From contig OZ059899.1 in NCBI GenBank assembly GCA_964057225.1, positions 10,974,001 to 11,038,000 on the forward strand: DNA of 64,000 bases. The letters are read 5' to 3'. Positions 9,550 to 56,910 of this stretch are shown one piece after another. How positions within the stretch are numbered: position 1 is the first letter of the stretch; every line of letters starts with the position of its first letter. The position numbers and the translations under genes are program-made. This DNA is from Auanema rhodensis (taxonomy: Eukaryota; Animalia; Nematoda). Under the pieces are notes generated by a model, which saw nothing but the letters and a program-made list of their open reading frames with translations, was not told the DNA's origin and did not search any database.

Positions 9550-10048
9550 ATCGTGGTCAGCATTTTACAACATTGATAAAATAGAAACTGAGAAAAAACA
9601 TCAACAAATGACACTATTAACTTGGTTTTTTGAACAGCTTTTTTATATTTCTTTTTTCACTATGAGAGAACTTATATTTATTGCTTTTTCAAAATTTTCC
9701 ATTTTTAACATTATACATCTTGACTATCACACATTGAGAACAACAGTTGGCAATGTTGGTTGTCACGTCATATTTCATGCAGTTAGATTTTCAGACACAT
9801 TAATACCTTTAACCATTCTTCTTATGAGTTTTGTAACGATAGATCGTAATAGGATATGAATTGCTATAATATGAAAAAATACAAGACATAGTCAACATTG
9901 ATTTCCCCAAATAGTATCATGTTTGCTTGTTATTCAATTAGAACACTTTTTTTTTGATTGTTTTCTTGAAATATTCTTTTTTTTCTTTAACAAAGTTATG
10001 ACTGAGATCAAAATTTGAACTTACTTTTGAACAATTAAACAGAAATTT

Positions 10049-14721: not shown

Positions 14722-14789
14722 TGCCGCCAGCAGGGGTCGAACCTGCGACCTTGGGCTTATTAGACTCACGCTCTAACCGACTGAGCTAT
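14722..14789 (-). pseudogene. tRNA-Ile(AAT) interrupted by element 2 (5' remnant at 26558-26567)
   Basis: Stops at CTGAGCTAT and resumes CTATGGCGGC at 26558. Confidence 0.95.
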
Positions 14790-15134
14790 CGTTCCGTTAT
14801 GCTCCTGCGTCGATAATATAAACCATTGTAGTTTATACTATGACGCGCATAGTATTCCTTGGTGTAGCGGTAAGGAATAAAGAGCATAAGGTCAATCATA
14901 AGATAAAAGAGAGAAAGATTTATTAGCATGAAACTACAACAATAATATACAAAGATAAAGATACAATACAATAAGATAAATATAAGTATAAAGACTAAAC
15001 TACAAGCCGTCCATGAGCTTGCTAAGAGGCGAACTCCCGACCAAGGGAACGAGGGAAGGCGGAGCCATTCCTCGGTCCTCTGGTCGTCTGGCTCTAACCC
15101 TTCAGCTACATATATGGGGAGTCCGAATGGAACG
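14790..15134 (-). repeat. 3' LTR of element 2
   Basis: Matches 26213-26557; CGTTCC...GGAACG terminal inverted repeats. Confidence 0.96.
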
Positions 15135-15145
15135 TGCCCTTTTTC
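15135..15145 (-). promoter_or_regulatory. Polypurine tract of element 2
   Basis: GAAAAAGGGCA directly before the 3' LTR on the minus strand. Confidence 0.75.
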
Positions 15146-15826
15146 AAAGATTTTTCGCGTCCGCGCGATATAAAGAGTTTTTAGTGTATATGTAGCTGAG
15201 TTTTAGAGTCTAGGAGTTTACAAATAAAATTAAAAGTTTTAAAATCTACATGTAGAAAGATATATAAATAGTTTTAATAGGTTTCTTCATGGTATTAAGA
15301 TAGAATTTGAATACAATAATAGGTTTTACGTTATTATAACGGAGGATTAGAAAATAAATTTAGTCACTGTAGTACTGTAATAAAAAAATTTTTCTTTGTT
15401 TCATGAATGTGTGATTTATGTGAGACAATAAGGAATTATTAAACATTTCGGTTACATGGTTACTCGTATCCTAATGATGATGGGGATATTTTTAGTTAAT
15501 AATTTACTCGTCTCCATATGTCTCTCTGAATGAATCCTTGAGTACTAATGGAGGCTACCACTCAGATGGGGTGTGGCTTAGGCGCCTGCCAATGTTCGTC
15601 TCTTCTTGGAGATACATATGGAGCTCAGTTCAGCGCAAAATATTATCTCTATCGGTCGTATAGGATTACGGTAGCCATTTATTTCTATTATATTTTCACT
15701 TATTCCTTATTTTTGGTTGTTTACTCACTTAATCTCTCATCAAAAAGTTTTCTAATTCACCGTTACTTTCATTTTACAATTTACAGAAAAGAAAGAATGT
15801 ATATAAAGTTATTTCTTGTCGTCTTT

Positions 15827-17805
15827 TCATGCTTTCTCTTTTTGATTTTTCATCCGTGGTAACCATAATTCATCTCCATCTTCGTTCTCTGATTCCGGTT
15901 CGCTATCGGTGTTATCTTGCTCGTTTCTTTTGATTACTCTTAGTATCTCTATATCGCTGTCCTCTTCTTCTTCTTCGTGATTGTTGCGTGTATTAGAGCG
16001 GGTATTGTGAGTGATATTTTGAGTCGCGTTTGAGAAGAGTTTGAGATTATCCTTGTGGATATCTTGTATCTTTCCTGATGAATTCCTTATCTGCACCTTG
16101 GATCCTTGTACGTTAATAACTTCGTAAGGTCCGTCATAGCTTTTCCTCAGTTTCTGACCAATTTTATGTGACTTTATTGTTGTCATCACCATGTCGCCGG
16201 GTTGAATGTTCCTTTCGTGCGTCCTTTGTGTTCTATCCTTCTTCTTTCTGGCGTTTTCTTGGTTTTGGGCGATACGTTCACGTATTATTTGGTCTATTTT
16301 CATCATTTGAGGTCTTCTCGTGAGTAATTCTTCCGAAATCTCTTTGATTTTTGTTATGGTTCCCGGTAATTCGGCATCAATTTTCATTCTGCATTCTTTT
16401 CCAAAAAGTGCTACGTATGGGGCTATGCCTGTTGTAGCATGCTGAATGTTATTGATAGCGAATGTAATTTTCGGCAATACGCTATCCCAGTCGCTTAGAT
16501 CTTCCTTCAAGTAGTGTGTTAATCCTTCCTCAAGAGTTCTGTGTAGTCTTTCGACTTGTCCGTTTGAGTTCTTTTGGTGAGGAAGGGTGGGTTCATGTTG
16601 AATTCCCAGTTTTGTACACATTTCTTCAAACTTTTGAGATACAAAATTAGATCCTCTATCGGTGATCAGTCGATGAGGCGGTCCGTATATGTATACAAAG
16701 TTGCGTAGAAATCTGTCAATTGTTATTTCTGTCGTAATTTGCGGTACTGCTATCGTTGTTGACCATTTAGTAAAAGCATCCTGGATGGTAATAACGTAAG
16801 TACAATTCCTTTTTGACGGGGGAAAAGGTCCCATTACATCCATATGAACTCGTTCAAAAGGCTTGGTCGGTATTTCAAATTGACCTATTGGCTGCACTGT
16901 CATAGAATGTGGGTCCTTCTTCCTTTGTGCGCATTTAATGCAGTTTTTGATATATATCATGATATCATTTTGCATGTTGGTCCAATAGAATCTCCGTAGG
17001 ATGGCTTCTTTAGTTTTATTAATTCCTTGATGCGCTGCGATTGTAGGATCTTCGTGAAATAATTCTATTATCTCGTCCTTGATTGGATGATCTTGTGGCA
17101 CAACGATTGCAGGATGTGGTTTCTTGTCTGTTGGTTTTGTGTAGAGTAATCCATTTATAACGCAATATCTATCGTTAGAGACCATTTTCTTTTGCGTTCT
17201 ATATTCGATGTCCGCGATTGTTTTCTTTATCCATAGAGTATTTTGTTGAATTTCTTTTATAGCAGGTGTATCAATAATATTTATTCTGATTGATTCTGCG
17301 TTTTTCTTTTTCTTCTTTTCCGGCTTTGCATCATTTGCTTCATCGCCTATATAACGTGACAATGCATCACATACTTTATTGAGCTGGCCCTCTCTGTACC
17401 TTATCTCAATGTCGTATTCTTGTATTACTAACTGAAATTTAGCAAGACGACCAAATAGGTCTCTGCGAGTTAGTAAACTTGTGAGAGGGCGATGGTCAGT
17501 GATACATATAGTATGCGTTCCCAGTATGTATGTGCGAAATTGATTCAGTGCGTATACTAACCCTAAGGCTTCAATTTCGATTGGTGCGTAATTGCGTTCC
17601 GCTTTTACCAGTTTTCTGCTGGCAAATGCGATAGGATGAAGATGCTTCAATGGTTGCGTGGGATCTTCTGGTTGCAATAATACTGCGCCCACTGCTATGT
17701 TGCTGCCGTCACTCTCGATAATGAATAATCGATCAGATTTTGGTGGACTTAATACAGGCGCTTGGGTGAGACTTCTTTTTAATCGATCTACAGCTTCCTG
17801 ATGTT
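15827..17805 (-). CDS. Pol C-terminal part (RNase H, integrase), out of frame after an internal RT deletion
   Basis: ESDGS..GAVLLQ, IAFASRKL, TDHRPL; integrase H..H/CIKC, HMDVMGP, ITDRGSNF, VERLHRT, GPY. Confidence 0.92.
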
Positions 17806-20800
17806 GCTTTTCTTGTATCAGAGATTATCAGCAGATCGTCCAAGTATACAAATAATTTGCAAGAGCATTTACTTTGCAAATATCTTACTGCTGTTTGAAA
17901 AGTATGAGGGGCTCCGCAGAGACCCATAGGCATTCTTTTATATTGATACGTGCCTGATGTTGTTGTAAATGCTGTTAAATGACGATCAGATTTACGTAGT
18001 GATATTTGAAAAAATCCTGATACTAAATCAAAGTTTGAGAAGAATTGAGCTCCAGCTGCCATGTCAACTATATCCGATATGCTTGGTATAACGTATGTTT
18101 GTTTACGCGTGACACTATTGAGGGCTCGAAAATCTGTCACGAACCTATATGTCTCATCCTTCTTCTTCACTAGCACAGCAGGGCTATTGAAGAGGGATGT
18201 AGAGGGTTCGATTATGCCTTGCTCTAGCATTTCTTTTACTTGCTTTTCCACTTCTTCCTGTTTACCAAGTGGAATCCTCGTTATTCTTGACCTTGGCATG
18301 TCCATATCCGATCTTAGTGGAATTGTATGCTCAATGGGTCCTTTAAATAGACCTATCTTCCTATCTTCATTAAGAAAAGCCTCACGATGGTTCTTAACTA
18401 TGTTTGTGAGCTCGTGCTTGTCTTCATTATTCAAATCTGCTTTATCCAGATTAAGGTCATTCATAAAATTTCTTGGAAAGTGGGGTAATTTATTCTCCCA
18501 ATCTGCTTCTGGTGGAATATATGGTTGCATAGGGTCTTCTTGTATTGTTTGCCAGCTTGGTACTTCTCCTATTGTTGCCTGCCCTATGACTGAATTAGCT
18601 TCCATAGCTAATGTTTTGTCCGTATTGTTACGGAAAACTACATATACTCCACTTGTCTCACGGAAAGCTGTTGGATAACTTGAAGCTAATGCATTTCCGT
18701 TGTCCCCTAAGATTACCACTTCGTTTGATTTGAGTGGTCTATCAGCTTTGATTGGAATAGTGGACTCTTCATCGGGTTGTATGATTCTTTTCTTCAAATT
18801 GATGATATTTATTGTTATTGCCGTTTGTTTAATGGCGTCCTGTTCAATTAAAGGGAGTGCGTAATTTCCGATCTCTAGCATCTTTTTCGATGGTTTTAAA
18901 CTGACATCAATGTTTTCACTATCGAGCGTGCTCATAAAGTCCATCCCAATAAGAGCAGGGGCTGGGCAATCACAGTCATTTGAGACCAAAAAGGTATGTT
19001 CTATCTCATAGCCAGCAATTTCGATGTTTAAATTTATTTTTCCGTATAATGTAAACGTTGTTTTGTTTGCTGCCATTGCCACTAATCGTCGCTTTTTGAC
19101 GTGTTGAGCCATGTTCAGGTATTTTAATGTCGATAGCCTGACATATGAGACTGACGAGCCTGAATCCCATAAAGCTAATATCAGCTTATCTTCCACTGAT
19201 ATATAGATAAGAGGTAGCTTTGTTTCTTTTGATTTAATAAAAGCAATAAATGGTATTGCTAGTGGAATGAATGTTACGAGCGCCGGGTAATACTGCTTCA
19301 TTATATTTTCTGGCATTGGTTGGTCTGGGCGGCTAACGAGTTCTAATGTTTCCTCGTAGCCTGGGGGCTCGTTGTCTGCTCTTTGAATATGCATGACTGG
19401 TAGTGGCATTGCTTTGAAAAAGTAGAATTTTCCGGCAAAGATGGTAACTATGATTGCTGCAATGATTAGAACAGTAGATCCTATTAATATTAAGGTTCTT
19501 TCAATTGTCCCCATTAAGAATTGTTTTATGCTATTCCAGGCTGTAGTTGTGAACTCAGTTGCTTTCGAAATAAATTCGCTGCCCTTTTTCAAAAGAATAA
19601 AGGCTGACGTTATCTTTGGGTCGTTGTGGATCGTATTTAGTACGTGATTTTGTCGTATTGAAGCTAAACTAGCTCCATACGCTATTGCGGTAGTCATTGA
19701 ATAGACTCTTGATGAAAGATTAGTATAAAGATGAGCACCTGTGAATTTTAAAGGCGTAACTTTATGTTGGTGGGCTCCATCAAAAAGTGTGATGGGATTG
19801 ACTTCCGCAGACCCATTAATGTTCATCCATTCCCCGTTTTTCTCATAAATATCAGTGGGTACGTGTTCGCAGTCGATTTCTTTCCCGTACGAGAGTAAAT
19901 CTCTTGATCCCGGTGCTGCGAAATATAATTTGTTGTCTTCGGTTGTTACTGGTGTCTCTAAGTAACATGTTTCATTGATTTTATGAGAGTGGTGAACGGT
20001 TTTAGGCTCTATTGGTAGGCATATATGAACATGAACTATTTCGCTGCCCACGAAACGCGCTGCTATGTCTTCTCTGCCAAGGATTGTTCTCATTGCTATG
20101 GTTGGCTCTATTTGGAGAATTGAACGCCACAATTCGAGATATCTATTTTGTATCTCGCATATGGATTCGTAAGATTCCATAAAATGCTTTTGCAATTCTT
20201 CCTGTATAAGAGTGGTTGCATATTGTAGATGATCTTGCGCTATTCTCTGAGATATATTCTGTTTATATTGTATCTCGTTGTTTACTTTGGAGCCTATATA
20301 ATGTGCTTGCGCTTGTACTGCTTTCGTTTCAATCTCCAAAGGTGGTGATGACGTTCTCTGCTTTCTTTGCGATCTTAAAGACATATCTGTGACCGTTGCA
20401 AACGTAGTAATAGGCTGTTCTTTGTGAACACCATATATTAATGTAACCGTTGTTGGCGCGCGCGTGGATGTTATGGCTTGAGTTGTATCGATCTCTGGCG
20501 TTGTTTGAGGGTCCTGGATTAGCTTTGTTACTTCCGTTGTTGTCGTTATATATTCAGTTTTGTCTGTCAGGCGTCTGGTTGAGTAGGGAGGTGTTCTTTT
20601 ATCCTCTAGTAGCGGTAGAAAGGTTTGAATGAGAAGATTTCGTGTATATTTGTTAGGACTTTTTGTTTGTTGATGGGGCCCAACAGGTATACCAAAATTA
20701 TTCTCCATATCTCGATATAATTTCTCTATATCTGGCAGGATAATAGTTGGTACAGGCAGATGTCGAAATCTTTCATCGTCTGCTCTGGCCGCTGTTCGAT

Positions 20801-23800
20801 TGGGTTTTATTGTACGTAGTTTGAGGACTTGGTGATATAGGTCAATTGTTTCTTTAATAATCAGTTGTTCCTTTTCGTTATTAGTTGATAATACGGGCCT
20901 GATTGGCGGCATGTTTACAAATGCTTTCAAAACTTCTTGTTTTGATGGCACCGACATGTTATTTTGAGCGAAAATGGTCGGTGTAAATGCCAACTCGAGC
21001 GCTATACTTTCGGTTCGCTCTCGATAACTTCCTTCTTTTGTGAGTATTTTTTCGTCAAATTCTTCTGCTGTTAATCTGTCGCCTATCTGCTCTAAAAGTT
21101 GCAGGGAGGTGAGGTATTTAACGGCTCCTCTTGTGGTAGCTGCCAGTTTATTTTGGGCGAAGAATTGAAGCATTGCTTCTTCCGGGTCGTAGAATTCATA
21201 TATTTTTAAGAATCTTTCTATTGATCTATCCGAAGTAGTGCTTCGTAGGAAGAATTTGAACTGCTCGGGATGTGCTGAGATCCACTTAACGATAGAATAT
21301 GTTGGATCTATCGTCCGTCTGGCTCGAATTATAGGAATTATTTGTGATATCCCAGGGTTACTCATTACTGGACGTAAAAATGGGTATGGGCATATGTTCA
21401 ATGTTAAAGTTTCGTAATCTTCTTGTTCTTTTATCCAGCTTTCGTCCAATTGCAGTGCGCATTGCGCTATAGCCCTTTTTTGACGCCTAGCTGGCAACTT
21501 TTTATATTCTCTTTCAATTAAGTTGTGTATATTACTGTCATTTGGATATTTTGGAAAGAGTATATAATTGCCCGTGGTTGATTGAAATATAGGTTGCGAA
21601 AAACATGATGTAATCTGTTTTGGAATTCGTTTATTGTCGATAACAAGGGCTGACTGCGTATTGGGAATCAGTATTATGCTGTCTCCAATGATGGCATCAT
21701 ATTCGCTCATGTCTATATAGTTGCATCTCTGTTCGTATGATTGGATTTCCCAGATGATCATGGAAGTATTGGATGCGCATTGGCCATGATGTGCAAGACA
21801 GCCTTCCGTATTGAGTAATAGATTTGTCAATATGGTGTCGTCTGGCATCCTGGTCATAACGCCTCTTTCCAAAACCAGTCGTTCTTTTTCTTCGCATTGT
21901 TCGTAATTGAATGAGCGCGCTGGAGAGAATGTAGGTTCGATTGTCGCGTATGTCAAGCTATCCAATTTAATCAGGTCTTCTGATTTCCATTTACGGTCGC
22001 GGACAGCCAGTCTACATTCGTTTTCTGTTGTTGGCTCAATTCGAACAATGGAGGAGTTATGATCTCTTAAAAATAGCAAATCCCTGATGCATATTTTATG
22101 TATTTCTTTTGAACATCGCCATGAATCCCATTCGTGAGCCGTCTGGTTTCTTGTATACAGATGTATGTTTGTGCGGAGGACATGTTTGGTAGGTGGTATT
22201 GTGCATTTCCTCAGGGGTGGGGGTATAAGGAGGGCTCCACCTGTAGCTTTAGTGCACATCTGATAAGCATCAGTTATAGTGATTAGTGATAAGATCACTG
22301 ATAAAGCTACTGCTAGTGTTAAGGGGGATATCAAGGTCAAATTATTGACTCTTGAGCCTCTTCCTCTACCTCTATTATTGTTGTTTCCCCTGAAGGGATT
22401 ATTACCGCGTTGACGGTTATCACTCTCCTGATTACGTGATAAGTTGTTATTTCTTTGATACCAATTTGGATTTGAGAAATTTCTACCGCGATTACCAAGA
22501 TTGCGGTTTCTTGCGAAAGAATTTTGCAGATTTTGTGGTTTCTGATTATTTGATGAATTTTGATAACTTTGATAATTTTGATAATTTTGGTAGTTTCTAT
22601 TGTTAAATGATTGATAGCCTCTACCGATTCCTCGCCTTCCGGTGTCGCGCCTGGGAGGGAATGTTCTATCGATTGCATTAACCAGTAGCGCCTGAGGGTC
22701 GGCTACTTGGTTAGCAATTGATTCCTCCCATCTGGCATTATCAATTGCCTCGGCAAACGTTTTTGGTTTAGCTCTGATTACCCCCGGACGTAATGTGTTT
22801 TTGAGACCGCGTAGAAAGGTGGATCTAAGAATATGGTCCTTGTGTGGGTCTGTATGGGAGAAAGCGTTTAAGCTTAGGCTTCGTAAAGTTTGTGCGAATC
22901 CATCTACTGATAGCTCGCCTTGGGTGGAATTCTGTAGCGTTATCAGCGCCGGATCTTGATTATACTCTGGGCATAGCCTAGAGGTAAGTTCTTCGATGAG
23001 TGTATTCCACGAGCCAGATGTCTTGATAGTATCGCTAAGCTGTGTATAAGCTTCTTCAGCTCGTTCGTTTTTAAGAAGTAATGGTAAGATTGTTAATCTT
23101 TCGGGCATAACTAAGCCTAAGGCGTTTGCAAAGGTGTTAAACTTGGCCACGAAGTCTCTAAAGTTGCGACTTCCGTCGTATATAGGGCAATATGGGGAGC
23201 TTAATGCCTGAGCAATGGTAGATTTACCCGCTCCTGGAAGCCGTGATGTTTCGGTCATTTCGGATGAGATGCCCTCAGGGTATGTGATAGGTGATATTAT
23301 CACTTCGCTCCTTGTTGGATCTTGATGAGTGTTTTCTATTGCCTTAGGGTTTCTGCTAGAGGAGCCTATTATAGGTGTAGTTGTTGCGAAACGGGCTCTT
23401 GGAACCTGGATGACTTTACCAGATGCCTGAGGCGATGTTCTATCAGTTGATCGTGAGCTAGGGATCGCACTATCTGATCTGTTAAGATTAGGATTATGTG
23501 AAGAAAACCGGGGTTTTGCTGTTCCGCTGGGTGTTGTGTTATCGCCTGGGGATAAGTTTAAAATCTTTATCAGTCGATTTGTTAAAGATCTTTTGTTTTT
23601 AAACTTATCAGTTGTTAATGATAAGGGTGAAGCTTCTTGTATGCCTTCGAGGCTGGCTTCTGCTGACAGAGTTTCTGTTGCGCGCTTACTGGGTGTTTTT
23701 GTCTTCCGCTTATTAGGGATATTCTTTTTGATCTTATCAGTGATTTTTGATAAGGTTGAAGGGTTGTCACTAGGTTGGGTGGGTTCTAAAGTTAGCGAAT

Positions 23801-24449
23801 GTGGTTGATTAATAGGCGTGGAAGACGCTTGCGGGCTTTGTGTTAACCCGAAGGATGGGGAAGGTGCGTTATCAGTGATAACTGATAAGTTCGACGCGTT
23901 TGGGTCTGAGGTTACCGGTGAGGCAGATGCGGTTGTCGGCTTTTTCTTTTGAATTTTTCGCAAATTTTTATTAGTATCAACTGAGCGTACCTTGGGATTT
24001 GTAGTTGGAGTTTGAGTGCTGTCGTCGGCTATGATGAAGTCCGGGTCTTCGTCGGTGTCGTCAGAAGGTGAATATGTACCTTCTCGGGGAGTATAGAACT
24101 TGTCGACTTGCGGCTTCGGCTTCTCGTCTGGTTGGTGCGGTTCTTCTATTTGAACACTGAGAAGTCGGGTGCGGCTTCGGGTACGACTTGCGACAGCAGC
24201 GTCACTGTTGGTATCGGACGGGTAAAGGGCTGGGAAAGCCGATGAGAATCTTTTGGCCACCTTTGTAGGACTTTTGGTTTGGAAAAACCGAGAATGGTGA
24301 GCTACGTGTGGGATGTTGATGTAAGGTGCGTAAGATTCTTTTAGATGTGTGTTGGGAGAGAGAGAGATTCGGGAGCAATAGGATAGTCGTGCTTCGCTGG
24401 GCGATGCGGAGGGTAAATGAGAGGGAGTTTTCCAAATCGTGGCCACCAA
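17733..24449 (-). CDS. Gag-Env-PR-RT polyprotein of element 2 (RT truncated after YLDD)
   Basis: S/T/P-rich N-terminus; capsid YDGSRNFRDFVAKF..FLRGL; RG/N-rich region; signal peptide, Cys-rich ectodomain, TM; protease LWDSGS; RT DFRALN, DLVSGFFQI, MPMGL, YLDD. Start codon uncertain. Confidence 0.93.
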   Translation of the reverse strand: MVATIWKTPSHLPSASPSEARLSYCSRISLSPNTHLKESYAPYINIPHVAHHSRFFQTKSPTKVAKRFSSAFPALYPSDTNSDAAVASRTRSRTRLLSVQIEEPHQPDEKPKPQVDKFYTPREGTYSPSDDTDEDPDFIIADDSTQTPTTNPKVRSVDTNKNLRKIQKKKPTTASASPVTSDPNASNLSVITDNAPSPSFGLTQSPQASSTPINQPHSLTLEPTQPSDNPSTLSKITDKIKKNIPNKRKTKTPSKRATETLSAEASLEGIQEASPLSLTTDKFKNKRSLTNRLIKILNLSPGDNTTPSGTAKPRFSSHNPNLNRSDSAIPSSRSTDRTSPQASGKVIQVPRARFATTTPIIGSSSRNPKAIENTHQDPTRSEVIISPITYPEGISSEMTETSRLPGAGKSTIAQALSSPYCPIYDGSRNFRDFVAKFNTFANALGLVMPERLTILPLLLKNERAEEAYTQLSDTIKTSGSWNTLIEELTSRLCPEYNQDPALITLQNSTQGELSVDGFAQTLRSLSLNAFSHTDPHKDHILRSTFLRGLKNTLRPGVIRAKPKTFAEAIDNARWEESIANQVADPQALLVNAIDRTFPPRRDTGRRGIGRGYQSFNNRNYQNYQNYQSYQNSSNNQKPQNLQNSFARNRNLGNRGRNFSNPNWYQRNNNLSRNQESDNRQRGNNPFRGNNNNRGRGRGSRVNNLTLISPLTLAVALSVILSLITITDAYQMCTKATGGALLIPPPLRKCTIPPTKHVLRTNIHLYTRNQTAHEWDSWRCSKEIHKICIRDLLFLRDHNSSIVRIEPTTENECRLAVRDRKWKSEDLIKLDSLTYATIEPTFSPARSFNYEQCEEKERLVLERGVMTRMPDDTILTNLLLNTEGCLAHHGQCASNTSMIIWEIQSYEQRCNYIDMSEYDAIIGDSIILIPNTQSALVIDNKRIPKQITSCFSQPIFQSTTGNYILFPKYPNDSNIHNLIEREYKKLPARRQKRAIAQCALQLDESWIKEQEDYETLTLNICPYPFLRPVMSNPGISQIIPIIRARRTIDPTYSIVKWISAHPEQFKFFLRSTTSDRSIERFLKIYEFYDPEEAMLQFFAQNKLAATTRGAVKYLTSLQLLEQIGDRLTAEEFDEKILTKEGSYRERTESIALELAFTPTIFAQNNMSVPSKQEVLKAFVNMPPIRPVLSTNNEKEQLIIKETIDLYHQVLKLRTIKPNRTAARADDERFRHLPVPTIILPDIEKLYRDMENNFGIPVGPHQQTKSPNKYTRNLLIQTFLPLLEDKRTPPYSTRRLTDKTEYITTTTEVTKLIQDPQTTPEIDTTQAITSTRAPTTVTLIYGVHKEQPITTFATVTDMSLRSQRKQRTSSPPLEIETKAVQAQAHYIGSKVNNEIQYKQNISQRIAQDHLQYATTLIQEELQKHFMESYESICEIQNRYLELWRSILQIEPTIAMRTILGREDIAARFVGSEIVHVHICLPIEPKTVHHSHKINETCYLETPVTTEDNKLYFAAPGSRDLLSYGKEIDCEHVPTDIYEKNGEWMNINGSAEVNPITLFDGAHQHKVTPLKFTGAHLYTNLSSRVYSMTTAIAYGASLASIRQNHVLNTIHNDPKITSAFILLKKGSEFISKATEFTTTAWNSIKQFLMGTIERTLILIGSTVLIIAAIIVTIFAGKFYFFKAMPLPVMHIQRADNEPPGYEETLELVSRPDQPMPENIMKQYYPALVTFIPLAIPFIAFIKSKETKLPLIYISVEDKLILALWDSGSSVSYVRLSTLKYLNMAQHVKKRRLVAMAANKTTFTLYGKINLNIEIAGYEIEHTFLVSNDCDCPAPALIGMDFMSTLDSENIDVSLKPSKKMLEIGNYALPLIEQDAIKQTAITINIINLKKRIIQPDEESTIPIKADRPLKSNEVVILGDNGNALASSYPTAFRETSGVYVVFRNNTDKTLAMEANSVIGQATIGEVPSWQTIQEDPMQPYIPPEADWENKLPHFPRNFMNDLNLDKADLNNEDKHELTNIVKNHREAFLNEDRKIGLFKGPIEHTIPLRSDMDMPRSRITRIPLGKQEEVEKQVKEMLEQGIIEPSTSLFNSPAVLVKKKDETYRFVTDFRALNSVTRKQTYVIPSISDIVDMAAGAQFFSNFDLVSGFFQISLRKSDRHLTAFTTTSGTYQYKRMPMGLCGAPHTFQTAVRYLQSKCSCKLFVYLDDLLIISDTRKATSGSCRSIKKKSHPSACIKSTKI
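19420..22340 (-). other. Class III (herpesvirus gB/chuvirus G-like) envelope glycoprotein domain
   Basis: Signal ..LSLITITDA|YQMC; RRQKR; ICEIQNRYLELWRSILQIEPTIAMRTILGREDIAARFVGSEIVHVHIC; CYLETPV; TM LILIGSTVLIIAAIIVTIF. Confidence 0.8.
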
Positions 24450-25499
24450 TCTGACTCCGCCTATCTACCGTAAGCTTATTATAGTTAATGATGTTTATCT
24501 CTTCTCAAAAACTATTTTTATCCACTCTTGCACTTTCCTCTAAATTTGTTTTCTTACTGCTCTAGAATCTTCAAAAAAAAACTTTATTCATGTCGTCCCC
24601 TTTGTACTTTTGCGGCCTTTGGACATTTATTTTAAGGTTAGAAACAAAAGAAAAGAAAAGAAAGAAAAAAAATGGATTTCCAACGTTATAATCCCACTGG
24701 CATGACTTATGTCCTGTGGAAATTATACGAATCCATCGTTGAATACGATGGAGAAGGAGTTTTGGCTTATAGGCCACATCCTGATATAATTTTGATGGTT
24801 TGTGTATCTCCATTTTATGTTTGATTATTTGATTACTTTAGTTTATCGAAGATCTCCAAATGTATTATTTGGGGCAGGGCCATATAAACTTTGCCACCTT
24901 CGTAGATGTAGCTCCCGAAGTGGAGCTTGTTGGTCGAAGGTGCTTAGTTGATCTATGCGCTCATGTATATAATGGTAGGGCCGGTTTATTAACCGCACGT
25001 CCTTGGGCCTGGTACCAGGAAAAGAGTCATTTTTATTATTATTTATTATATAGATTATTGTTTAAAATCTATATTGTTCATGATGACTCATTATTTGGTT
25101 TGGAACTTAGGGCTTCGCGAGGTTTAGAATATAGTGAAGATTTAATTGCGAGCGAAACTCCTATGTTTCTTGCCTCTGAGTTTCGAACTCGGTTGCAAAT
25201 CAAATATGGGTATTGACTGAATAAAGTTTGTACTCTGTGTTTTTATTTTTGTGCACTTTGCTCTGTTTTTGTCAAGAAAACGGACTTATGTTTTCAATCT
25301 TTTCCTCATTCCTTTTCCCTTAAATAGCATGTTTTGCTCAAAATGTTTTCGACATTGTGCATGCTAATGAGGTTTGAGGAGAGTTATTGAAAAGGCTGTC
25401 CTTTTTCTTGATCAAAATAAGCAAAAGTGCGTTTTCCTAAGCGAATTTCTTTTTTAAAAATGAGAAAAATACGTCTATTTTTAAACATTTCCAATTTAC

Positions 25500-26125: not shown

Positions 26126-26199
26126 AATTTAGAATGCAAAAATGGACTTTTACAATAAAAAAAAATTTTTTTTTTTTTTTTTTCAAAAGATGAGTTCGA

Positions 26200-26212
26200 G
26201 GTGGAACCTCCA
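26200..26212 (-). promoter_or_regulatory. Primer binding site, tRNA-Gln
   Basis: TGGAGGTTCCACC directly abutting the 5' LTR; complement of GGTGGAACCT-CCA. Confidence 0.85.
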
Positions 26213-26557
26213 CGTTCCGTTATGCTCCTGCGTCGATAATATAAACCATTGTAGTTTATACTATGACGCGCATAGTATTCCTTGGTGTAGCGGTAAGGAA
26301 TAAAGAGCATAAGGTCAATCATAAGATAAAAGAGAGAAAGATTTATTAGCATGAAACTACAACAATAATATACAAAGATAAAGATACAATACAATAAGAT
26401 AAATATAAGTATAAAGACTAAACTACAAGCCGTCCATGAGCTTGCTAAGAGGCGAACTCCCGACCAAGGGAACGAGGGAAGGCGGAGCCATTCCTCGGTC
26501 CTCTGGTCGTCTGGCTCTAACCCTTCAGCTACATATATGGGGAGTCCGAATGGAACG
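26213..26557 (-). repeat. 5' LTR of element 2
   Basis: Identical by eye to 14790-15134. Confidence 0.96.
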
Positions 26558-45467: not shown

Positions 45468-45900
45468 GTATCATGTTTGCTTGTTATTCAATTAGAACAC
45501 TTATTTTTTGATTGTTTTCTCGAAATATCGTTCCATGCGGACGCCTAGTGTATGTAGTTAGTGTGTTAGAGTTAGACTGACTAGAGGACTGAGGAATAGC
45601 TCCGCCTTACCTCGGTTCTCTAACCAGGAGTTCGCCTCTTAGCAAGCCCATGGACGGTTTGTATCTAGTTTATGATATCATCTATCATATCATCTGTATC
45701 ATGTTTGCTTGTTATTCAATTAGAACACTTATTTTTTGATTGTTTTCTCGAAATATCGTTCCATGCGGACGCCTAGTGTATGTAGTTAGTGGGTTAGAGT
45801 TAGACTGACTAGAGGACTGAGGAATAGCTCCGCCTTACCTCGGTTCTCTAACCAGGAGTTCGCCTCTTAGCAAGCCCATGGACGGTTTGTATCTAGTTTA
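45468..45900 (+). repeat. 205-bp tandem duplication spanning the array/LTR junction, with 23-bp filler
   Basis: 45468-45672 repeated at 45696-45900 with one substitution; filler at 45673-45695. Confidence 0.93.
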
Positions 45901-46121
45901 GTTTATCTTGTACATTAGTCATTGTCTTGTAAATGTAGTCTACTCCATTCTTGTATTATTGTAGTGTAATGTTGTTGTATCGTGTATAATAAATCTATCC
46001 TTTTCCTTATCTTATGATATCCTTATGCTCTGTTTTCATACGCTACACTTATGGAATACTATCCGCGTAGTTGAGCAGACTACAATGGTCTGTTCAATAT
46101 ACGCAGGAGCATAATGGAACG
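45757..46121 (+). repeat. 5' LTR of element 3 (365 bp)
   Basis: CGTTCCAT...ATGGAACG termini, homologous to element 2 LTR; AATAAA 45988-45993. Confidence 0.93.
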
Positions 46122-46830: not shown

Positions 46831-47381
46831 TTTCACATATTTCTGTTAAAACCGGAATAATTTTCGTATTCTTCAGCAAATAAGCGAAAAAAAAAAAAAA
46901 AAAATTTTCTCGTTCTTTTGTTGTTCATATTTGATTGCGAAATTTTATTTAATAATTTTACTTCAAAAAGGTACAATCGAAAAAAAAAAAAGAAAAAAGC
47001 GATGTAATTTTCTATTCATTTGTGAACGACAAAGGAAACACAAAGTAAACTTATGCCTCATACACTTTTTGTATTGTGAAGGTTATTCAAAATGGTTGCA
47101 ATTCCATTTTGAAATTGGTTCCAAGTGACTAAAAGAACCGGAAACACAAAAGAAAAAAAAAAATTTTGAAAAGTACACATGTACAACAAACACCGTCATT
47201 ACGGATTTAATAGAAGGACCGAGTATGTCAAATTATAAACACGATTGCTGATTGCCGAATACGGTGGATGGGCGGAGTTAGATCTCTGGCCAAGATTGAA
47301 AATCCCTTCTCATTCACCCTGCAGCATCGCCCCAGCGACGCACGAAAAGTTTCTACTTTAATACAACTCTCATCCTATCTA

Positions 47382-50300
47382 CAGAATACTCAGCTACTAA
47401 CGTCAACATCCCTCACGTAGCCCACCACTCTCGGTTTTTCCAAACCAAGAGTACTACAAAGGTGGCAAAGAGATTTGCTTCGGCTTTTCCAGCCCTTCAC
47501 CCATCAGATTCTAACAGCGACGCTACCGTCGCTAGCCGTACAAGAAGCCGCACACGACTCCTCAGTGTTCAAATAGAAGAGTCTAATCAGCCGGACGAAA
47601 AGCCGAAACCACAACTCGACAAATTCTATACTCCACGCGAAGGTACATATTCACCTTCTGACGACACCGACGAAGACCCGGACTTCATCATAGCCGACGG
47701 CAACGCTCAAACTCCCACTACAAACCCCAAGGTACGCTCATTTAATACTAATAAAAATCGAAAAATTCAAAAAGAAAATCCGACAACCGTATCTGCCTCT
47801 CCTGTTAACTCAGATCCAAACACTTTATCAGCTATCACTGATAACACACTCTCTCCTTCTATAGAGCTAACCCAGAGTCCATAGGCGTATTCCGCAACTA
47901 CAGACCTTCGAAACTCTTCAAATCAAGAGCTCACCGAAGCTAATACTAGCCAATCTCCTTTATCAGCTATCACTGATAAGCTCAAAAAGAATATTTCCAA
48001 TAAGAGGAAAACCAGCACACCCCGTAAACGAACAAAAGTAACCACTGAGGCAGAAGCACCCTCCGCAGAAGCTTCAGAAGTTTCACCGTTATCACTTACA
48101 ACTGATAAGTACAAAAACAAGAGATCGTTAACAGCCCGACTGATAAAGATCTTAAACTTATCTCCAGGTGATAAAGCAACAACTCCCAATACCGTAAGAC
48201 CTCGATTTGCTTCACATAACTCTTATCTTAACAAATCAGATAGCGCAATCCTTAGCTCCCAATCAACTCCTATAACACCGCCTCAGGCATCTGGCAGGGT
48301 TATCAAGGTCCAAAAAGCTCGTTTTACAACAGCGGTTCCCGTTATAAGCTCTTCAATCGATTCAGAGACCGGTGGCTCTTCAGAGACAAGAAGAAACACT
48401 TACCCAGAAGCATCAATAAGTGAAGTGATAACATCACCTATCACACACCCCAAAGGCATTTCATCAGAAATGACTGAAACACCACGTCTCCCGGGAGCTG
48501 GTAAATCAACCATTGCTCAGGCATTAAGCTCTCCATACTGCCCCATATATGATGGAAGTCGTAACTTTCGAGATTTCGTTGCGAAATTTAACACCTTCTC
48601 TAATGCCTTAGGCTTAGTGATGCCTGAGAGATTAACTATCTTGCCTCTACTTCTCAAAAATGAAAGAGCGGAAGAAGCTTATACACAGCTGGCCAATGAA
48701 ATAAAGACAGCTGGACCTTGGATCACACTGATCGAAGAGTTAACATCGAAGCTTTGCCCTGAATATAATCAGGACCCGGCACTGATAACGCTTCAAAATT
48801 CCACCCAAGGCGACTTATCAGTGGATGGATTTGCGCAAACCCTACGTAACTTAAGTTTGAACGCATTTTCTCAGAGTGATCCTCACAAGGATCACATCCT
48901 CCGATCAACATTTTTGCGAGGACTCAAAAACAGCATACGCCCTGGGGTAATCAGAGCAAAACCCAAAACTTTTTCTGAAGCTATTGATAACGCCCGTTGG
49001 GAAGAATCAATAGCTAATCAAGTAGCTGACCCTCAAGCGTTACTTGTAAACGCAATAGAAAGAACATTCCCACAAAGGAGAGATCCTGGTAGGCGAGGAA
49101 ACGGTAGAGGATATCAATCATTCAACAATAAAAATTATCAAAATTATCAAAAAATTATCAAAATTCATCAAACTATCAAAAACCTCAAAATTATCAAAAT
49201 TCATTTGCAAGAAATCGCAATTTTGGTAATCGCGGTCGAAATTTTTCAAATCAACCTAACTCGAATTGGTATCAAAGAAATAATACTTTATCACGCAACC
49301 AGGAGATAAACGATAACCGTCAACGCTTAAATAATCCCTTCAGGGGAAATAACAACAACAGAGGAAGAGGAAGAGGCTCTAGAGTCAATAACTTGACTTT
49401 AATATCTCCTTTAACATTAGCAGTAGCTTTATCAGTAATCTTATCACTGATCACCACTGTGGAAGCTTATCAGCTATGCACAAAAGCTACCGGAGGAGCC
49501 CTTCTGATTCCACCTTCCCTTAGAAAATGTTCCATACCATCAACAAAACACGTGCTTCGGACAAGAATTCATCTTTACACAAGAAATCAAACAGCTCACG
49601 AATGGGACGCCTGGAGATGCTCTAAAGAGGTTCATAAAATATGTATAAGAGACCTCCTATTTCTTCGAGACTACAACAGTACAGTTGACAGAATCGAAAA
49701 AATACCAGCCGCAGAATGCAGGTTGGCAGTACGAGATAGGAAATGGAGCTCTGAGGAATTGAAAAAACTTGATAGCATTACATATGCAACAAACGAGCCA
49801 ACATTTTCGCCCGGACGATCGCTCAATAATGAACAATGCGAAGAAAAACCTCGACTGGTACTAGAACGAGGAGTAATGACAAGAATGCCAGATGACACTG
49901 TAATATCGAATTTAATTTTGAATACTGAAGGCTGTCTTTCGCATCACGGAGAATGTGCGTCTAACACTTCTATAATCATTTGGGACAAACCTTACGAGAA
50001 TCGTTGTAATTACATTGACATGAGCGAATATGATGCTATAATTGGAGACAGCATCATTCTCATCCCAACAACGCAGTCTGCACTTGTCATTGAGAACAAA
50101 AAAGTCCCGAAAGAAATATCATCTTGTTTCCAACAACCAATTTTTCACACTACAACTGGAAATTATATTCTCTTCCCGAAGTTCCCAAACGACATCAATA
50201 TACATGAACTGATCGAAAGAGAATTCAAGAAATTACCGCCAAAAAGGACAAAAAGAGCCATTGCAGAATGCAAGGTTGAAATGAACAAAGAATGGATTCA

Positions 50301-53300
50301 ACAACAGGAAGATTTTGAAACAATAATTTTAAACATCTGCCCATATCCATTTCTCCGACCAGTTATGAGCAACCCGGGAATTTCCCAAATTATCCCACTC
50401 ATGCGTAGCAGACAAATAGCAGATCCTTCATACTCTGTTGTCGACTGGATTTCCGCACATCCTGAGAAATTCTATTTCTTTCTTCGAAATCCCGTCTCAG
50501 ATAAATCAATACAACGATTTTTCAAAATTTACGAACTGCGTAACCCTGAAGAGGCTATACTCTTCTTTTTGGCACAAAAAGAGCTGGCAGCAACCACAAG
50601 AGGCGCTATCCGGTACCTTACTTCTCTACAACTATTAGAGCAGATCGGCGACAGATTGTCAGCGGAAGAATTTGACGAAAAACTCTTAAAGAAAGATGGA
50701 TCATACCGCGAAAGAGCAGAAAGCATAGCATTAGAACTAGCATTTACGCCCGTAGTATTTGAAAACAACTTGTCGGTACCATCAAAACAAGAAGTTTTAA
50801 AAGCCTTTGTGAACATGCCGCCTACGAGGCCCAGTTTAACAACTGATAGTGAGGAGGAGAGAAGAGTACTTGAAAACACTCTCGACTTATATCACAACAT
50901 AATCAAACTACGCGTGGCTAGGCCAAATAGAACGATAGCCGCCAAGGATGATGAAAGGTTTCGTCATCTGCCGGTTCCTGCCACCAAACTACCAGATATA
51001 CATACATTATACCACGATATAGAGAACAATTTTGGTATACCGGTGGGCCCACATCCTCGTATACAGAATCCTAGCAAAGATACGCGAGAATTGCTCATTC
51101 GGACATTCCTACCTTTGCTAGAAGACACACGCAAACCACCTTACTTGAGTAGAAGACTGCCTATTACCACCACTCAAATGACACCACTATCAGGGCCTCC
51201 GGAAACAATTTACAAAGAACCTACAAAAAGTCAGACGACCTATGCACCACAGCCAGTAACAAAAACCGCTACCTTGGTGCAGCAAACAACAAGATTTGAT
51301 GAAACTACTGAGACAACCACGACACACGCAACAAGCACGATGTTATATGCTTTGTACACTGAGAAAACACCTTCAACAATGACACCCATATCCGAAACCA
51401 CGCTACGCTCCTTAAGGAAACAAAGAACATCATCGCCTCCTATAGAAACAAAAGCGATTCAGGCTCAGAGCAATTATATAGCATCAAAAGTGAACAATGA
51501 AATGCAAACTAATCAAAATACATCTCGAAAAATAGCACAAGATCATCTGCAATACGCTACCACAATTGTGCAGGAAGAACTACAACGACATTTTGTGGAA
51601 TCTTTTGAATCCATATGTGAAATCCAGAATAGATACCTGGAATTATGGCGTTCTATTTTACAAATAGAGCCCACAATTGCAATGAGGACCATACTAGGTA
51701 GAGACGATATTGCAGCGCGTTTTGTGGGCAGCGAGATAGTACATGTTCACATATGTCTACCTCTGAAGCCTAAGACTGTTCATTATTCACATAAGATCAA
51801 CGAAACTTGCTATCTAGAGACGCCAGTAACAACAGAGGAGAATAAATTGTATTTTGCTGCACCAGGATCGAAAGATTTATTGACACATGGAAAAGAAATA
51901 AATTGCGATCACGTACCAACTGATGTATATTCAAAAGATGGCGAGTGGATGAATGTCAATGGGTCGGTAGAAGTGAACCCCATCTCACTTCTTGATGGTG
52001 CTCACCATCATCAAATTACACCATTGAAATTTACAGGAGCTCATCTTTATACGAATCTTTCATCACGAATATACTCAATGACTACAGCAATCGCATACGG
52101 AGCTAGTCTTGCATCAATACGACAAAATCACGTATTACATACCATTCACAATGATCCTCAAATAACATCGACATTTAATCTTTTGAAAAGGGGCAGCGAT
52201 TATATCTCGAAAGCTAAAGAATTTACATCTACAGCCTGGAACAGTGTCATAGATAGTTTGATAGGGTCAATTGAAAAAACACTCATATTCATAGGATCCG
52301 TGGTCATAATTATCGCATTGACCATTATTGTTATCGTCATCGCTAAACTATACTTCTGTAAAACAATGCCGTTACCTATCATGCACATTCAAGGCATGGA
52401 TCATGAGCCCCCAGGCTATGAAGAAACATTGGAACTTGTTAGTCGAGCAGATCAACCAATGCCAGAAAGCATAATGAAACAATACTATCCAGCTCTGGTG
52501 ACATTTATTCCATTAGCAATGCCATTCATCTCTTCTATTAGAGCAACGGAAACAAAGTTACCTTTGATATACATATCAGTAGAGGACAAGCTGATACTAG
52601 CACTATGGGATTCAGGCTCATCAGTCTCATATGTTAGGCTATCGACACTAAAATATTTAAATATGGCTCAACATATTAAAAAGAGACGTTTAGTTGCAAT
52701 GGCTGCTAATAAATCAACATTCACATTATATGGAAAAATAGAACTCATTATTGAAATTGCTGGTTATGAAATCGAACACACATTTTTGGTCTCGAGCGAT
52801 AACGATTGCCCAGCCCCAGCGTTAATTGGACTCGACTTCATGAAAACGCTCGATAGCGAAAACATCGACGTCAGCCTGAAACCATCCAAAAAAACGCTCG
52901 AGATTGGTAACCACGCTCTTCCTTTGATTGAACAAGAAGTCATTAAACAGAAATCAATAACTGTAAACATCATCAATTTAAAAAGACGTATACTACAGCC
53001 TGAAGAAGAAGCTCCTATACCAATCAAAACAGACAGGCCACTCGAACAAAACGAAGTGGTAGTCTTAGGAGACAACGGAAGCGCGTTAGCCACCAGTTAT
53101 CCAACAGCGTTTCGTGATACATGTGGAGTATATGTTATATTCAGAAACAATACAGATAAAACGATAGAAATAGAACCCAACTCGGTAATTGGGCAAGCAA
53201 ACATAGGAGAAATCCAGTCCTGGCAGTCCATCAAGAACGAGCCAACAACGCCTTATATACCACCCGAGGCAGACTGGGAAAACAAATTACCACACTTTCC

Positions 53301-56262
53301 CAGAGATTTCATGAAAGACCTTAACCTTGAGAAAGCTGACCTAACAAAGGAAGATAAACAAGAACTAACAAAAATAATCGAACAACATAGGGAAGCTTTT
53401 CTAAATGAAGATAGAAAAATAGGCTTATTCAAAGGACCCGTCGAACATACTATTCCATTAAGAACGGACATGGATATGCCAAGACCAAGAATAACACGTA
53501 TTCCACTTGGAAAACAAGAAGAAATAGAAAGACAAATCCTAGAAATGCTTGAACAAGACATTATTGAACCATCTACATCTTTGTTCAATAGCCCTGTAGT
53601 ATTGGTCAAGAAGAAAGACGATACTTATAGGTTCGTGACAGATTTTCGAGCCTTAAATAACGTAACACGCAAGCAAACATATGTAATACCAAGCATTTCG
53701 GACATAGTTGACATGGCAGCGGGAGCTAAATTCTTCTCAAACTTCGACTTAGTATCAGGATTCTTTCAAATATCTTTACGGAAATCAGATCGACGATTAA
53801 CAGCATTTACTACAACATCAGGAACGTATCAATACAAACGTATGCCTATGGGTCTCTGTGGAGTCCCACATACATTTCAAACAGCTGTAAGATACTTGCA
53901 AAGTAAATGTTCTTGCAAACTATTTGTCTACCTGGACGATCTATTAGTCATATCAGATACAAGAGAACAACATCTCAAAGACATCGACGAATTATTGCAC
54001 GCAGTAGAAAAATTAGGAATGAAAATAAAGCTCAAGAAATGCGCTTTTGCACAACCAGAAGTGAAATTCTTAGGACTAATAGTTGGACGACAAGGAATGA
54101 AGCCAGATCCTCAAAAGGTCGCGGCTATACAGGACTATCCTGCACCTAAGAACGCAACAGGAGTACGCGCTTTCTTAGGAATGGTTGGATTCTTTCGAAA
54201 ATTTATAAAAGATTTTGCACGGATCGCAAGTCCTTTATACGACTTAACAAAGGCAGAGACTGAATTTATATGGAATAAAGAACATCAAGAAGCTATAGAT
54301 CTCCTAAAAAGAAGTCTTATACAGGCACCCGTGTTAAGCCCACCAAAATCAGATCGCTTATTTATCATTGAAAGCGACGGGAGTAACATTGCCATAGGTG
54401 CCGTATTACTACAACCTGAAGATCCAAGACAACCTCTAAAGAATCTACATCCAATCGCATTTGCAAGCAGAAAATTAGTAAAAGCAGAAAGGAATTATGC
54501 GCCTATAGAAATAGAAGAGCTAGGCCTAGTGTACGCGCTAAATCAGTTTCGAACATATATTCTTGGAACACATACAATATGCATTACGGACCATCGACCT
54601 CTTACTAGCTTACTAACGCGAAGAGACTTATTTGGACGACTCGCGAAATTTCAGCTAGTAATCCAAGAATACGATATCGAGATAAGATATAGAGAAGGCC
54701 AATTGAACAAAGTATGCGATGCTTTATCCCGATACATAGGAGAAGAAGCCAACGACGCAAGGCCTGAGACGAAGAAGAAGAAGAAAAAGGAAGAAATTCA
54801 CATAAATGCCATAAATACACCAACAATAAAGGAGCTTCAACTAAACACCCCTTGGATTAAAAGAACGATAACGGAGATAGAATATAGAGCACAAAAGAAT
54901 ATGACAGCAAACGATAGATACTGCGTTATAAACGATTTGCTCTATACAAGACCAACAGACAAAAAGCCTCATCCTGCAATCGTTATACCACAAGACCATC
55001 CAATAACGGACGAAATTATCAAATTATTTCACGAAGATCCCACCATAGCAGCACATCAAGGAATAAATAAGACAAAGGAAGCAATATTAAGAAGATTTTA
55101 TTGGACAAACATGCAGAATGACATCACAATGTTTATCAAAAACTGCATAAAATGTGCGCAAAGAAAGAAGGATCCCCATTCTATGACAGTTCAACCAATC
55201 GGACAATTTGAAATACCAAGTAAACCATTCGAACGGGTTCACATGGATATTATGGGACCATTCCCTCCCACACGAAGAAATTGCACCCATGTAATTACCA
55301 TACAAGACTCATTCACTAAGTGGGCGACAACAATAGCAGTTCCGTGTATTACAACAGAAATTACCATCGACAGATTTCTAAGGAATTTTGTATACATTTA
55401 TGGACCACCCCAGCGACTGATCACCGACCGAGGATCCAATTTTGTATCAAAAAAGTTCGAAGAAATGTGTAAAATGGTTGGAATAATACATGAACCTACC
55501 CTTCCTCATCAATAGAACTCTAACGGTCAAGTCGAAAGACTACATAGAACGTTAGAGGAAGGGTTAACACACTATATGAAAAAAGACCTAAGCGAATGGG
55601 ATACCATTTTACCCAAGATTACTTTCGCGATCAACAATATTCAGCACGCTACAACCGGAATTGCACCATATGTAGCACTATTCGGAAAAGAAGGCAGAAT
55701 GATACTCGATGCCGAATTACCAGACACCATACGGAGAATACAGGAAATTTCTGATGAACTACTAGCAAGAAAGCCACAAATGATGAAAAGAAACCAAATA
55801 ATTCATGACCGAATAGCGCAGAATCAAGAAAATGCAAAGAAAAAGAAGGACCAAACACAAAGAACGCGCGACAGAAATATACAACCAGGAGATATGGTCA
55901 TGACCACTATAAAATCACATCAAATTGGTCAGAAACTACGAAAAAGCTACGATGGACCCTTCGAAGTCATCAATGTCGAAGGATCTAAGGTCCAAATAAG
56001 GAATGGAGCAGGAAAAATTCAAGACATTCATAAAGACAACCTCAAATTATTCTCTAATTCGGAACAAGACAGCGCTTACAATACCAGAGCGAGCAAATGG
56101 AAACAACAAGCCGAGGAAGAAGACGACAGCGATATTGAGGTCATCGAAGTAATAAAAGGGAACAAGGGAAGCGACTCAGAAACAGAACCAGAATCAGAAA
56201 TGGAGGATGGAAACGAACTATGGTTACCGACTAATACGAACCGACAGAGAATAAAAAAGTAA
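47382..56262 (+). pseudogene. Gag-Env-Pol polyprotein of element 3, disrupted
   Basis: Collinear with element 2; TAG at 47882-47884, frameshift near 49150, TAG at 55513-55515 inside integrase. Fragments 47462-47884, 48425-49309, 49393-55515 (env, PR DSG at 52609, RT YLDD 53929-53940, RH, IN) and 55576-56262. Confidence 0.92.
49393..52360 (+). other. Class III gB-like envelope glycoprotein domain of element 3
   Basis: Signal ..ITTVEA|YQLC, KRTKR, ICEIQNRYLELW, CYLETPV, TM LIFIGSVVIIIALTIIVIVI. Confidence 0.8.
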
Positions 56263-56910
56263 AATATTATAATTGATAACGATGAATTAGAAATTTCTTT
56301 GCAAGACATTAGAAATAGGCATCAAAAGAAGAGATTTCAAAAAAATAATAAACTTATGATGATATTAATTAATACTAAGACCAAAGCCGTACTACTATGC
56401 TGATTACAGAGATTTGAAACTTGTGAAAAAAAAAAATAATATAATAAATAAATAAATCAATAAAATGAAAAGCTCTACATGCCTCCCCATGATAGATGAG
56501 ACGAACACTGACAGGCATATAGACCACATGTCAACTGAGTGGTAGCCGCCATTAGTACTCGAGGATTCGCTCTGGGAGACAGGTAGAGACAGAGAAAAAT
56601 AGAAATCAATACCTCTACCACAGCTAGTATACGAGTTAGCAGTTGCAAGTATTAGTACAATGACCAAACTATACAAAAGCGATATACAAAAAAAAAAAAA
56701 AAAAAAATCTCTACTTATGATGACTATATGAAACAAACATATGAACTAAATATAAAAATTCTAATTCTTCGTTACCAAAAATTACGTATTTCATATTATT
56801 GTGTTAAAAATTTTTTTTTTCTCTCCAAACTGTAAAACACAACTACATACCAACTCAAAAACTTTTTGGTTAAAATTCGCGAGGACGCGAAAAATCTTTT
56901 GAAAAATCTT

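Follow-up and report, generated by a model that had tools for sequence, protein, structure and literature searches.

The window described here is a 64,000-nt stretch of the genome of the nematode Auanema rhodensis (NCBI GenBank assembly GCA_964057225.1, contig OZ059899.1, positions 10,974,001 to 11,038,000 of the forward strand). It is built of 48 tandem copies of a 666-bp unit, interrupted by three long terminal repeat (LTR) elements. The array units carry tRNA-Ile(AAT) genes, 43 of which have been found (window 9550-64000). The subject of this analysis is elements 2 and 3, in which an envelope gene (env) for a fusogen of the herpesvirus glycoprotein B (gB) type lies between gag and the protease. 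Element 2 occupies 14790-26557 on the minus strand (~11.8 kb), and element 3 starts at 45757 on the plus strand with its parts in the identical order. The pol order of both, protease (PR), reverse transcriptase (RT), RNase H (RH), and integrase (IN), is of the Ty3/gypsy type. Both copies are damaged, and they represent two related Ty3/gypsy families.

A single stop-free frame of 2243 codons (17733-24464, minus strand) extends in element 2 from the capsid through part of RT. Its order of capsid, RG/N-rich region, signal, ectodomain, transmembrane (TM) segment, tail, protease, and RT is the one given in a preliminary description of this DNA. The capsid matches Retrotrans_gag (residues 468-555, E 6e-4), and the first in-frame ATG is residue 403 (23258). 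At this base composition, an open frame as long as env would arise by chance with a probability of ~1e-27. The Cys-bearing ectodomain of the preliminary description is also present, with 16 Cys, 14 of them conserved, in a length of ~918 aa instead of the ~950 aa first given.

The second copy that had been described, with the same layout in diverged sequence, is confirmed in element 3 (frame 49132-55515), whose internal parts share 75-78% DNA identity with those of element 2. The continuous frame runs from gag to RT in element 2 and from the RG/N-rich region to the integrase in element 3, and no single copy is whole. Both had been treated as whole but are broken. The RT of element 2 lacks ~110 codons that element 3 retains, and its frame changes there. 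A programmed frame change at this point was considered and ruled out, since these codons are lost and element 3 is open there. Element 3 is interrupted in gag by a stop and a frame change and in the integrase by a further stop, and it has no 3' LTR.

Among Pfam families, the ectodomain of element 2 matches Monjiviricetes_fusion with E 3.5e-17; its match to Glycoprotein_B (E 2.9e-9) does not reach the Pfam cut-off for gB. Among PDB sequences, env matches herpesvirus gB with E 0.001 or weaker. The AlphaFold model of the ectodomain, built with 71 sequences, has a pLDDT of 76 and a pTM of 0.49, and matches herpesvirus gB in Foldseek with E 4e-10. The ten Cys of the N half are conserved in 8/8 rows and the four Cys of the C half in 10/10 or 11. 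In the model, two hairpins carry hydrophobic tips, which would fit fusion loops. A furin-like RQKR is found at residue 994 of element 2.

The ectodomain is 920-981 aa long in elements 2 and 3 and in the Auanema protein P0008, versus 570-591 aa in three Caenorhabditis proteins. The difference is due to a helical insert and a Thr-rich linker. Between the env halves, the linker ranges from <20 to 514 aa among 92 relatives, and to judge from these sequences it has the appearance of a known kind of variable site. The 300-aa insert is all-helical in its model (pLDDT 76.6, pTM 0.72). Matches that bear it number 6 among the best 150 env relatives, plus P0008, all named Auanema sp. The insert has no Pfam family, and Foldseek at E 0.001 gave no match for it in PDB or BFVD. 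Its best VIA Z is 3.8 among 48,161 chains and its Atlas matches are <=0.80, by which neither a new fold nor a lack of relatives is shown. A role of the insert in receptor binding or fusion control is a matter of speculation.

Selection was estimated from the ratio of nonsynonymous to synonymous differences per site (pN/pS) between elements 2 and 3, with bootstrap intervals. The Jukes-Cantor-corrected dS is saturated in env, and pN/pS is therefore reported instead. For env overall the ratio is 0.21 (confidence interval 0.18-0.24) at a pS of 0.76, and with env synonymous sites near saturation such ratios overstate omega. The values are lowest in the capsid (0.08), protease (0.08), and RT (0.09). 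Within env and its flanks they are 0.15 for the signal, 0.14 for domains I/II, 0.25 for the insert, 0.50 for the Thr-rich linker, 0.13 for the C-part, 0.43 for the TM segment, and 0.14 for the tail. Env is under purifying selection, and neutral evolution, which the preliminary description had named as an outcome fatal to its reading, is not what is observed.

The stretch is present in 11 of the 14 listed sequencing runs, all of them DNA and from three studies. The layout is not an assembly artefact, because contigs from three DNA runs (three studies; one may be the source) span both the Gag-env and the env-protease junctions.

The same order is widespread among relatives. Among the best 150 of 276 env relatives, classified by profiles that miss BEL/Pao pol, env lies before the protease or RT in 54 and after it in 1, while 92 hold env only and 3 the insert only. 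Together with the purifying selection on env, this bears out the earlier view of a maintained architecture and not a nested insertion. The region of env C-part, protease, and RT has 57 matches, and 10 of the 15 that were scanned have a gB-type match before the protease or RT. Five single database proteins (P0010, P0012, P0013, P0014, and P0017) carry capsid, gB, protease, RT, RNase H, and integrase in this order. A quick RT-RNase H tree was made of 56 rows, namely 54 of the 57 matches and the window copies (P0008, P0039, and P0046 were left out for short cover). Twelve env-before-protease rows, including both window copies, form one side of a branch with an SH-aLRT of 100; these labels were assigned in this analysis, that of P0016 on a weak env match. 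The clade joins the window copies with Auanema, Caenorhabditis, and Heterorhabditis proteins, and the proteins closest to elements 2 and 3 come from Auanema and Caenorhabditis.

Table 1. Features of elements 2 and 3, with positions in the window.
Feature	Position	Strand	Details
Element 2 5' LTR	26213..26557	-	345 bp; CG..CG ends; 100% identical to 14790-15134
Element 2 3' LTR	14790..15134	-	345 bp
4-bp target-site duplication	14786..14789; other copy 26558-26561		Within a tRNA-Ile gene of the array
Primer-binding site, tRNA-Gln type	26201..26212	-	Abuts the 5' LTR
Polypurine tract	15137..15145	-	Precedes the 3' LTR
S/T/P-rich in-frame extension without ATG, upstream of capsid	23259..24317	-	~350 codons; pN/pS taken in three parts
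Gag capsid, starting at the first in-frame ATG	22665..23258	-	C-terminal junction motif at residue 595
RG/N-rich nucleocapsid-like region	22350..22664	-	No CCHC knuckle; in-phase slippery heptamer at 22383-22389
Junction motif (residue 706), then internal signal-like hydrophobic segment	22263..22349	-	Segment is residues 706-735
Env gB-type domains I/II	21474..22262	-	10 conserved Cys; furin-like RQKR at the end
Inserted ~300-aa helical domain	20565..21473	-	pN/pS 0.25; pLDDT 76.6, pTM 0.72; Auanema homologues
Thr-rich linker, mucin-like	20340..20564	-	27% T; low model confidence
Env gB-type domains III-V	19509..20339	-	Long central helix; 4 conserved Cys
Predicted transmembrane segment	19407..19508	-	Residues 1653-1686; hydropathy peak 2.9
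66-aa cytosolic spacer (predicted)	19209..19406	-	Junction motif at residue 1690
Aspartic protease	18885..19208	-	DSG at 19166
RT N-terminal part	17826..18344	-	Ends shortly beyond YLDD (17846); broken by deletion
RNase H and integrase	15827..17824	-	Other frame, after the RT break
Element 3 5' LTR	45757..46121	+	365 bp; CG..CG ends; followed by a primer site identical to that of element 2
Element 3 upstream extension and capsid	47300..49309	+	Two pieces; stop at 47884; frame change past the capsid
Element 3 open frame	49132..55515	+	RG/N, signal, gB-type env, TM, protease, RT, RNase H, integrase core
Element 3 integrase C-terminal part and trailer	55516..56910	+	Follows a stop; ends at the polypurine tract

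Taken as one claim, it is in our judgment probable that a gB-type envelope stands in frame between gag and the protease and that the long protein is threaded twice through the membrane of the endoplasmic reticulum (ER), then cut by host enzymes and by its own protease. The signal and TM calls are based on hydropathy and on conservation within the family. The internal signal would direct Env into the ER lumen while Gag remains cytosolic, and signal peptidase would free the Env N-terminus. The TM segment would halt transfer and so leave protease, RT, RNase H, and integrase in the cytosol on the Env tail, and furin would cut Env after domain II. Env trimerisation and membrane-anchored Gag may collect the protease precursors at one membrane. 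Once activated, the protease would cut at three motif sites, one behind the capsid, one ahead of the signal, and one directly behind the TM segment, giving free capsid, nucleocapsid, and Pol. In such a scheme, the single frame would couple the budding site, Env incorporation, and Pol packaging with no need for a spliced env mRNA. The lumenal Env of the preliminary description is consistent with the signal, the TM segment, the 14 conserved Cys, and conserved sequons. Among further relatives, a segment of TM strength lies between env and the protease in 47/48 and one of signal strength before env in 28/34.

The predicted viral-protease sites follow the pattern [VIM][NM][ANSQRTH][IVL], which we will call the junction motif. 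It has only 3 matches in the 2243-aa frame of element 2, at residues 595, 706, and 1690, and the last of these is 4 residues beyond the TM segment. In the rows that defined it, the motif is present before the signal in 8/8 and after the TM segment in 10/11. In other relatives, it is found before the signal in 12/34 (7% expected) and after the TM segment in 16/47 (6% expected), and in ectodomains it is four times rarer than background. For comparison, the Ty1 protease cuts its PR/IN site at I-N*N-V, with a preference for Val/Ile at the P2 and P2' positions, as reported in the available text of PMC6952103. The viral protease probably cuts on either cytosolic side of the Env cassette, and Pol would then be tethered only as a precursor.

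Several observations weigh against this interpretation. The ectodomain model has the pTM of 0.49 given above and low TM-scores (0.16/0.24), although the low global scores have been attributed to the insert. The furin site is not universal, being absent from some relatives. The junction motif was defined after the alignment had been viewed, and in its strict form it is missing from about two thirds of the out-of-sample relatives. Over the 15 residues that follow the TM segment the net charge is -1 and -2, which is no clear positive-inside pattern. The full gag-to-integrase frame is seen only through two overlapping broken copies and through gene models that may hide introns, and the RT-RNase H tree, besides being quick, holds no named reference elements. 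Narrow patterns were used in the scan of elements 2 and 3 that found no splice sites common to both copies flanking env. Making Gag and Pol in equal amounts is also an odd ratio for capsid assembly. The C. elegans element Cer1 likewise has no stop between gag and pol (PMC10309623, available text).

The preliminary description had proposed that Pol stays on the Env tail and is packaged only in this way, with a fixed 1:1:1 stoichiometry and with host signal peptidase alone separating Gag from Env. The single frame fits this proposal, as does the spacing from the TM segment to the protease. The distance to the catalytic Asp is 81 residues in element 2 and 65-103 in close relatives, and the median distance to the protease domain is 84 residues in 47 other relatives. 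However, the protease-site-like motifs right after the TM segment and before the signal point to release by the viral protease. A tether is likely for the precursor, while a lasting one is unlikely. Directly before the protease, at 19229-19292, lies a Pro-rich hydrophobic stretch that is kept in most close relatives.

One broader proposal goes beyond the preferred scheme of threading and cutting. In this proposal, the gB-type fusogen would be a self-contained entry machine, its insert a receptor-binding or fusion-regulating module that replaces gD/gH/gL. The viral protease would excise the Env cassette by cutting at sites on its two cytosolic sides. The ratio of Gag to Env-Pol would be set by a -1 frameshift that leads to a stop near the end of Gag, the reverse of the usual retroviral use. 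As a joint claim we hold this to be improbable. The entry mechanism of a lone gB-type protein is given as unknown in section 9 of PMC13524379.

The frameshift may also be considered separately, as a way for Gag to be made in excess and not at 1:1:1. A -1 slip at the heptamer of the Gag end would lead to a stop within 2-4 codons and so to free Gag, while the remaining ribosomes would read on into signal, Env, and Pol. Both copies have an in-phase G GGA AAY at codon 692, which lies 14 codons upstream of the signal, and the -1 frame past it reaches a stop after 4 and 2 codons. The 70 nt downstream have fold z-scores of -2.7 and -1.8, and pS in the heptamer region is 0.45-0.49 versus 0.70-0.87 in env. 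On the other hand, the heptamer encodes Arg-Gly-Asn within an RG/N-rich stretch and may have been inherited by chance, and each copy has 8-10 in-phase heptamers. In the two-sequence fold downstream, 0/24 pairs show a two-sided change, and the stable stem lies farther from the heptamer than the usual 5-9 nt. The lower pS extends over the upstream extension too. Metagenome and viral contigs yielded no DNA of relatives in which the slippery site and intron-free frames could be checked. Gag excess by such a slip is distinctly unlikely.

Splicing has been considered as a third possibility, in which env is spliced out to give Gag-Pol and is made from a separate message, the fused frame being rarely translated through. 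A precedent is the protein CERV of Cer1, made via splicing according to the available text of PMC10309623. Both copies share two splice-donor-like sites, which lie where the upstream extension is highly conserved, at 24079 and 23990 (47643 and 47732 in element 3). A spliced product of the Cer1/CERV kind from the extension is possible on the basis of these sites. For removal of env itself, however, the two copies share neither a donor close to the end of Gag nor an acceptor between the TM segment and the protease. The signal and tail codons are selected and in frame in both copies, and the fusion is kept in the 54 relatives counted above among the best 150. Removal of env by splicing is very improbable. 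Last, a one-off nested insertion or an assembly artefact that put an env fragment into a gypsy element, for which the hard-to-assemble 666-bp array around the elements might speak, is refuted by the two diverged copies, the purifying selection, the bridging contigs in three DNA runs, and dozens of relatives.

The upstream extension of the frame has pN/pS values of 0.105, 0.24, and 0.53 in its three parts. No relatives of the extension were found, which is weak evidence. Its start could be explained by a non-AUG start, by splicing, or by damage to the element 2 copy.

Outside the coding parts, the LTRs of elements 2 and 3 have CG at both ends (14790, 26557, 45757, 46121) and a 6-bp inverted repeat. 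LTRs usually end in TG..CA. Non-coding leader and trailer blocks (25500-26212 and 15500-15606) are 74-78% conserved between the two elements and are candidate packaging or export signals. Both copies have, at the C-terminus of the integrase (~15940-15976 and ~56113-56154), an acidic stretch and after it an Ile/Val-rich motif, which we take to resemble a SUMO-interacting motif.

An internally deleted form without capsid, env, and pol, joined at 15814/24019 of element 2, is present in two DNA runs and in one run guessed to be RNA, the latter contributing one 189-nt contig. Its breakpoints have a common 7-nt repeat. Splicing was ruled out as the origin of this joint, since it is found in DNA runs, has the 7-nt repeat at both ends, and lacks a GT donor. 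In one run (X1), the ends of the element are covered more deeply than its middle. These observations suggest that non-autonomous derivatives exist.

The identical LTRs and the target duplication of element 2 show that the group has been recently active inside a tRNA-gene array. Element 2 sits ~10 nt into a tRNA gene and points the same way as that gene. Elements 1 and 3 adjoin the array unit at phases other than that of element 2, and targeting of the tRNA array is unsupported because the element ends fall at different unit phases. At the 5' end of element 3, a 228-bp tandem duplication (45468-45900) extends across the junction of array and LTR; at its 3' end, the element halts at the polypurine tract and abuts a partial tRNA gene. 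A shortened array unit occurs in identical form at 45092-45098 and 61514-61520, 16 kb apart. Germline-restricted repeats that include tandem tRNA arrays have been reported from an Auanema species (bioRxiv 10.64898/2026.08.27.747507, available text). Element 1 is a BEL/Pao element with one open frame of 2701 codons (254-8359), three zinc knuckles, and a phlebovirus-G2-like env downstream of the integrase. Its LTR parts at 1-150 and 9401-9550 are identical. A gag-pol with Pao peptidase and DUF1759, and a class II env after the integrase, are found in element 1 only and not in elements 2 and 3.

Elements 2 and 3 belong to the published nematode group of Ty3/gypsy elements with GAG-ENV-POL order and a gB-type env. 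Their layout is thus no discovery, and the novelty that the preliminary description had left possible does not hold. In the available text of PMC13524379, errantiviruses of Nematoda, Bryozoa, and Platyhelminthes have only an env of the HSV/gB type and GAG-ENV-POL order, and the nematode case is credited to Sacco et al. 2022. Its supplement 1 has 36 nematode elements, and its supplement 6 has ENV-POL matches in two Auanema assemblies. Processing of the polyprotein is not a subject of its available text. The 12-nt tRNA-Gln primer site of the window copies is identical to those of the C. latens_4 and C. tropicalis_1 rows of supplement 1. By analogy with Drosophila gypsy (PMC13524379, section 9), the elements may spread from soma to germline or from cell to cell.

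Features for which no description was found in the literature are the junction motifs flanking Env, the helical insert, the ATG-free extension, the CG..CG ends, and the frameshift candidate; the text of Sacco 2022 may already cover the motifs, the insert, or the LTR ends. That work (J Gen Virol 103:1739) reportedly describes a continuous gag-env-pro-pol open reading frame under the name NERV. The locus offers testable handles in its three predicted viral-protease sites, the furin site, the lineage-specific folded insert, and the candidate frameshift site.

Among known systems, the Drosophila errantiviruses (gypsy, ZAM, Idefix) share the Ty3/gypsy pol order and the possession of a fusogen. Their env is of the F type and follows pol, which is not the case in elements 2 and 3, and they use a separate spliced env message and a gag-pol frameshift. 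The nematode BEL/Pao elements with a phlebovirus-like env (Atlas virus, the Cer13 group, and element 1) also hold env inside one long frame with an internal signal and TM segment. In contrast, they have a BEL/Pao pol and a class II fusogen, with env after the integrase. The class III fusogens, herpesvirus gB and the Monjiviricetes/chuvirus glycoproteins, share the fold and the domain III motif, whereas the protein described here has smaller domains I/II, an inserted helical domain, and no gD/gH/gL partners. Cer1 is, like elements 2 and 3, a nematode Ty3/gypsy element with no gag/pol stop and with an N-terminal extension before the capsid; in the available text of PMC10309623 its extra protein is CERV, made via splicing, and no gB-type env is described. 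Compared with the other nematode GAG-ENV-POL elements, the window copies are broken, have a long ATG-free pre-capsid extension, and have an ectodomain of ~920 aa versus 570-591 aa in C. nigoni, C. remanei, and C. brenneri. They share with that group the gag-env-pol order, the gB-type env between a signal and a TM segment, the LTRs, and the length of ~11.8 kb, and with two of its listed Caenorhabditis elements the identical tRNA-Gln primer site.

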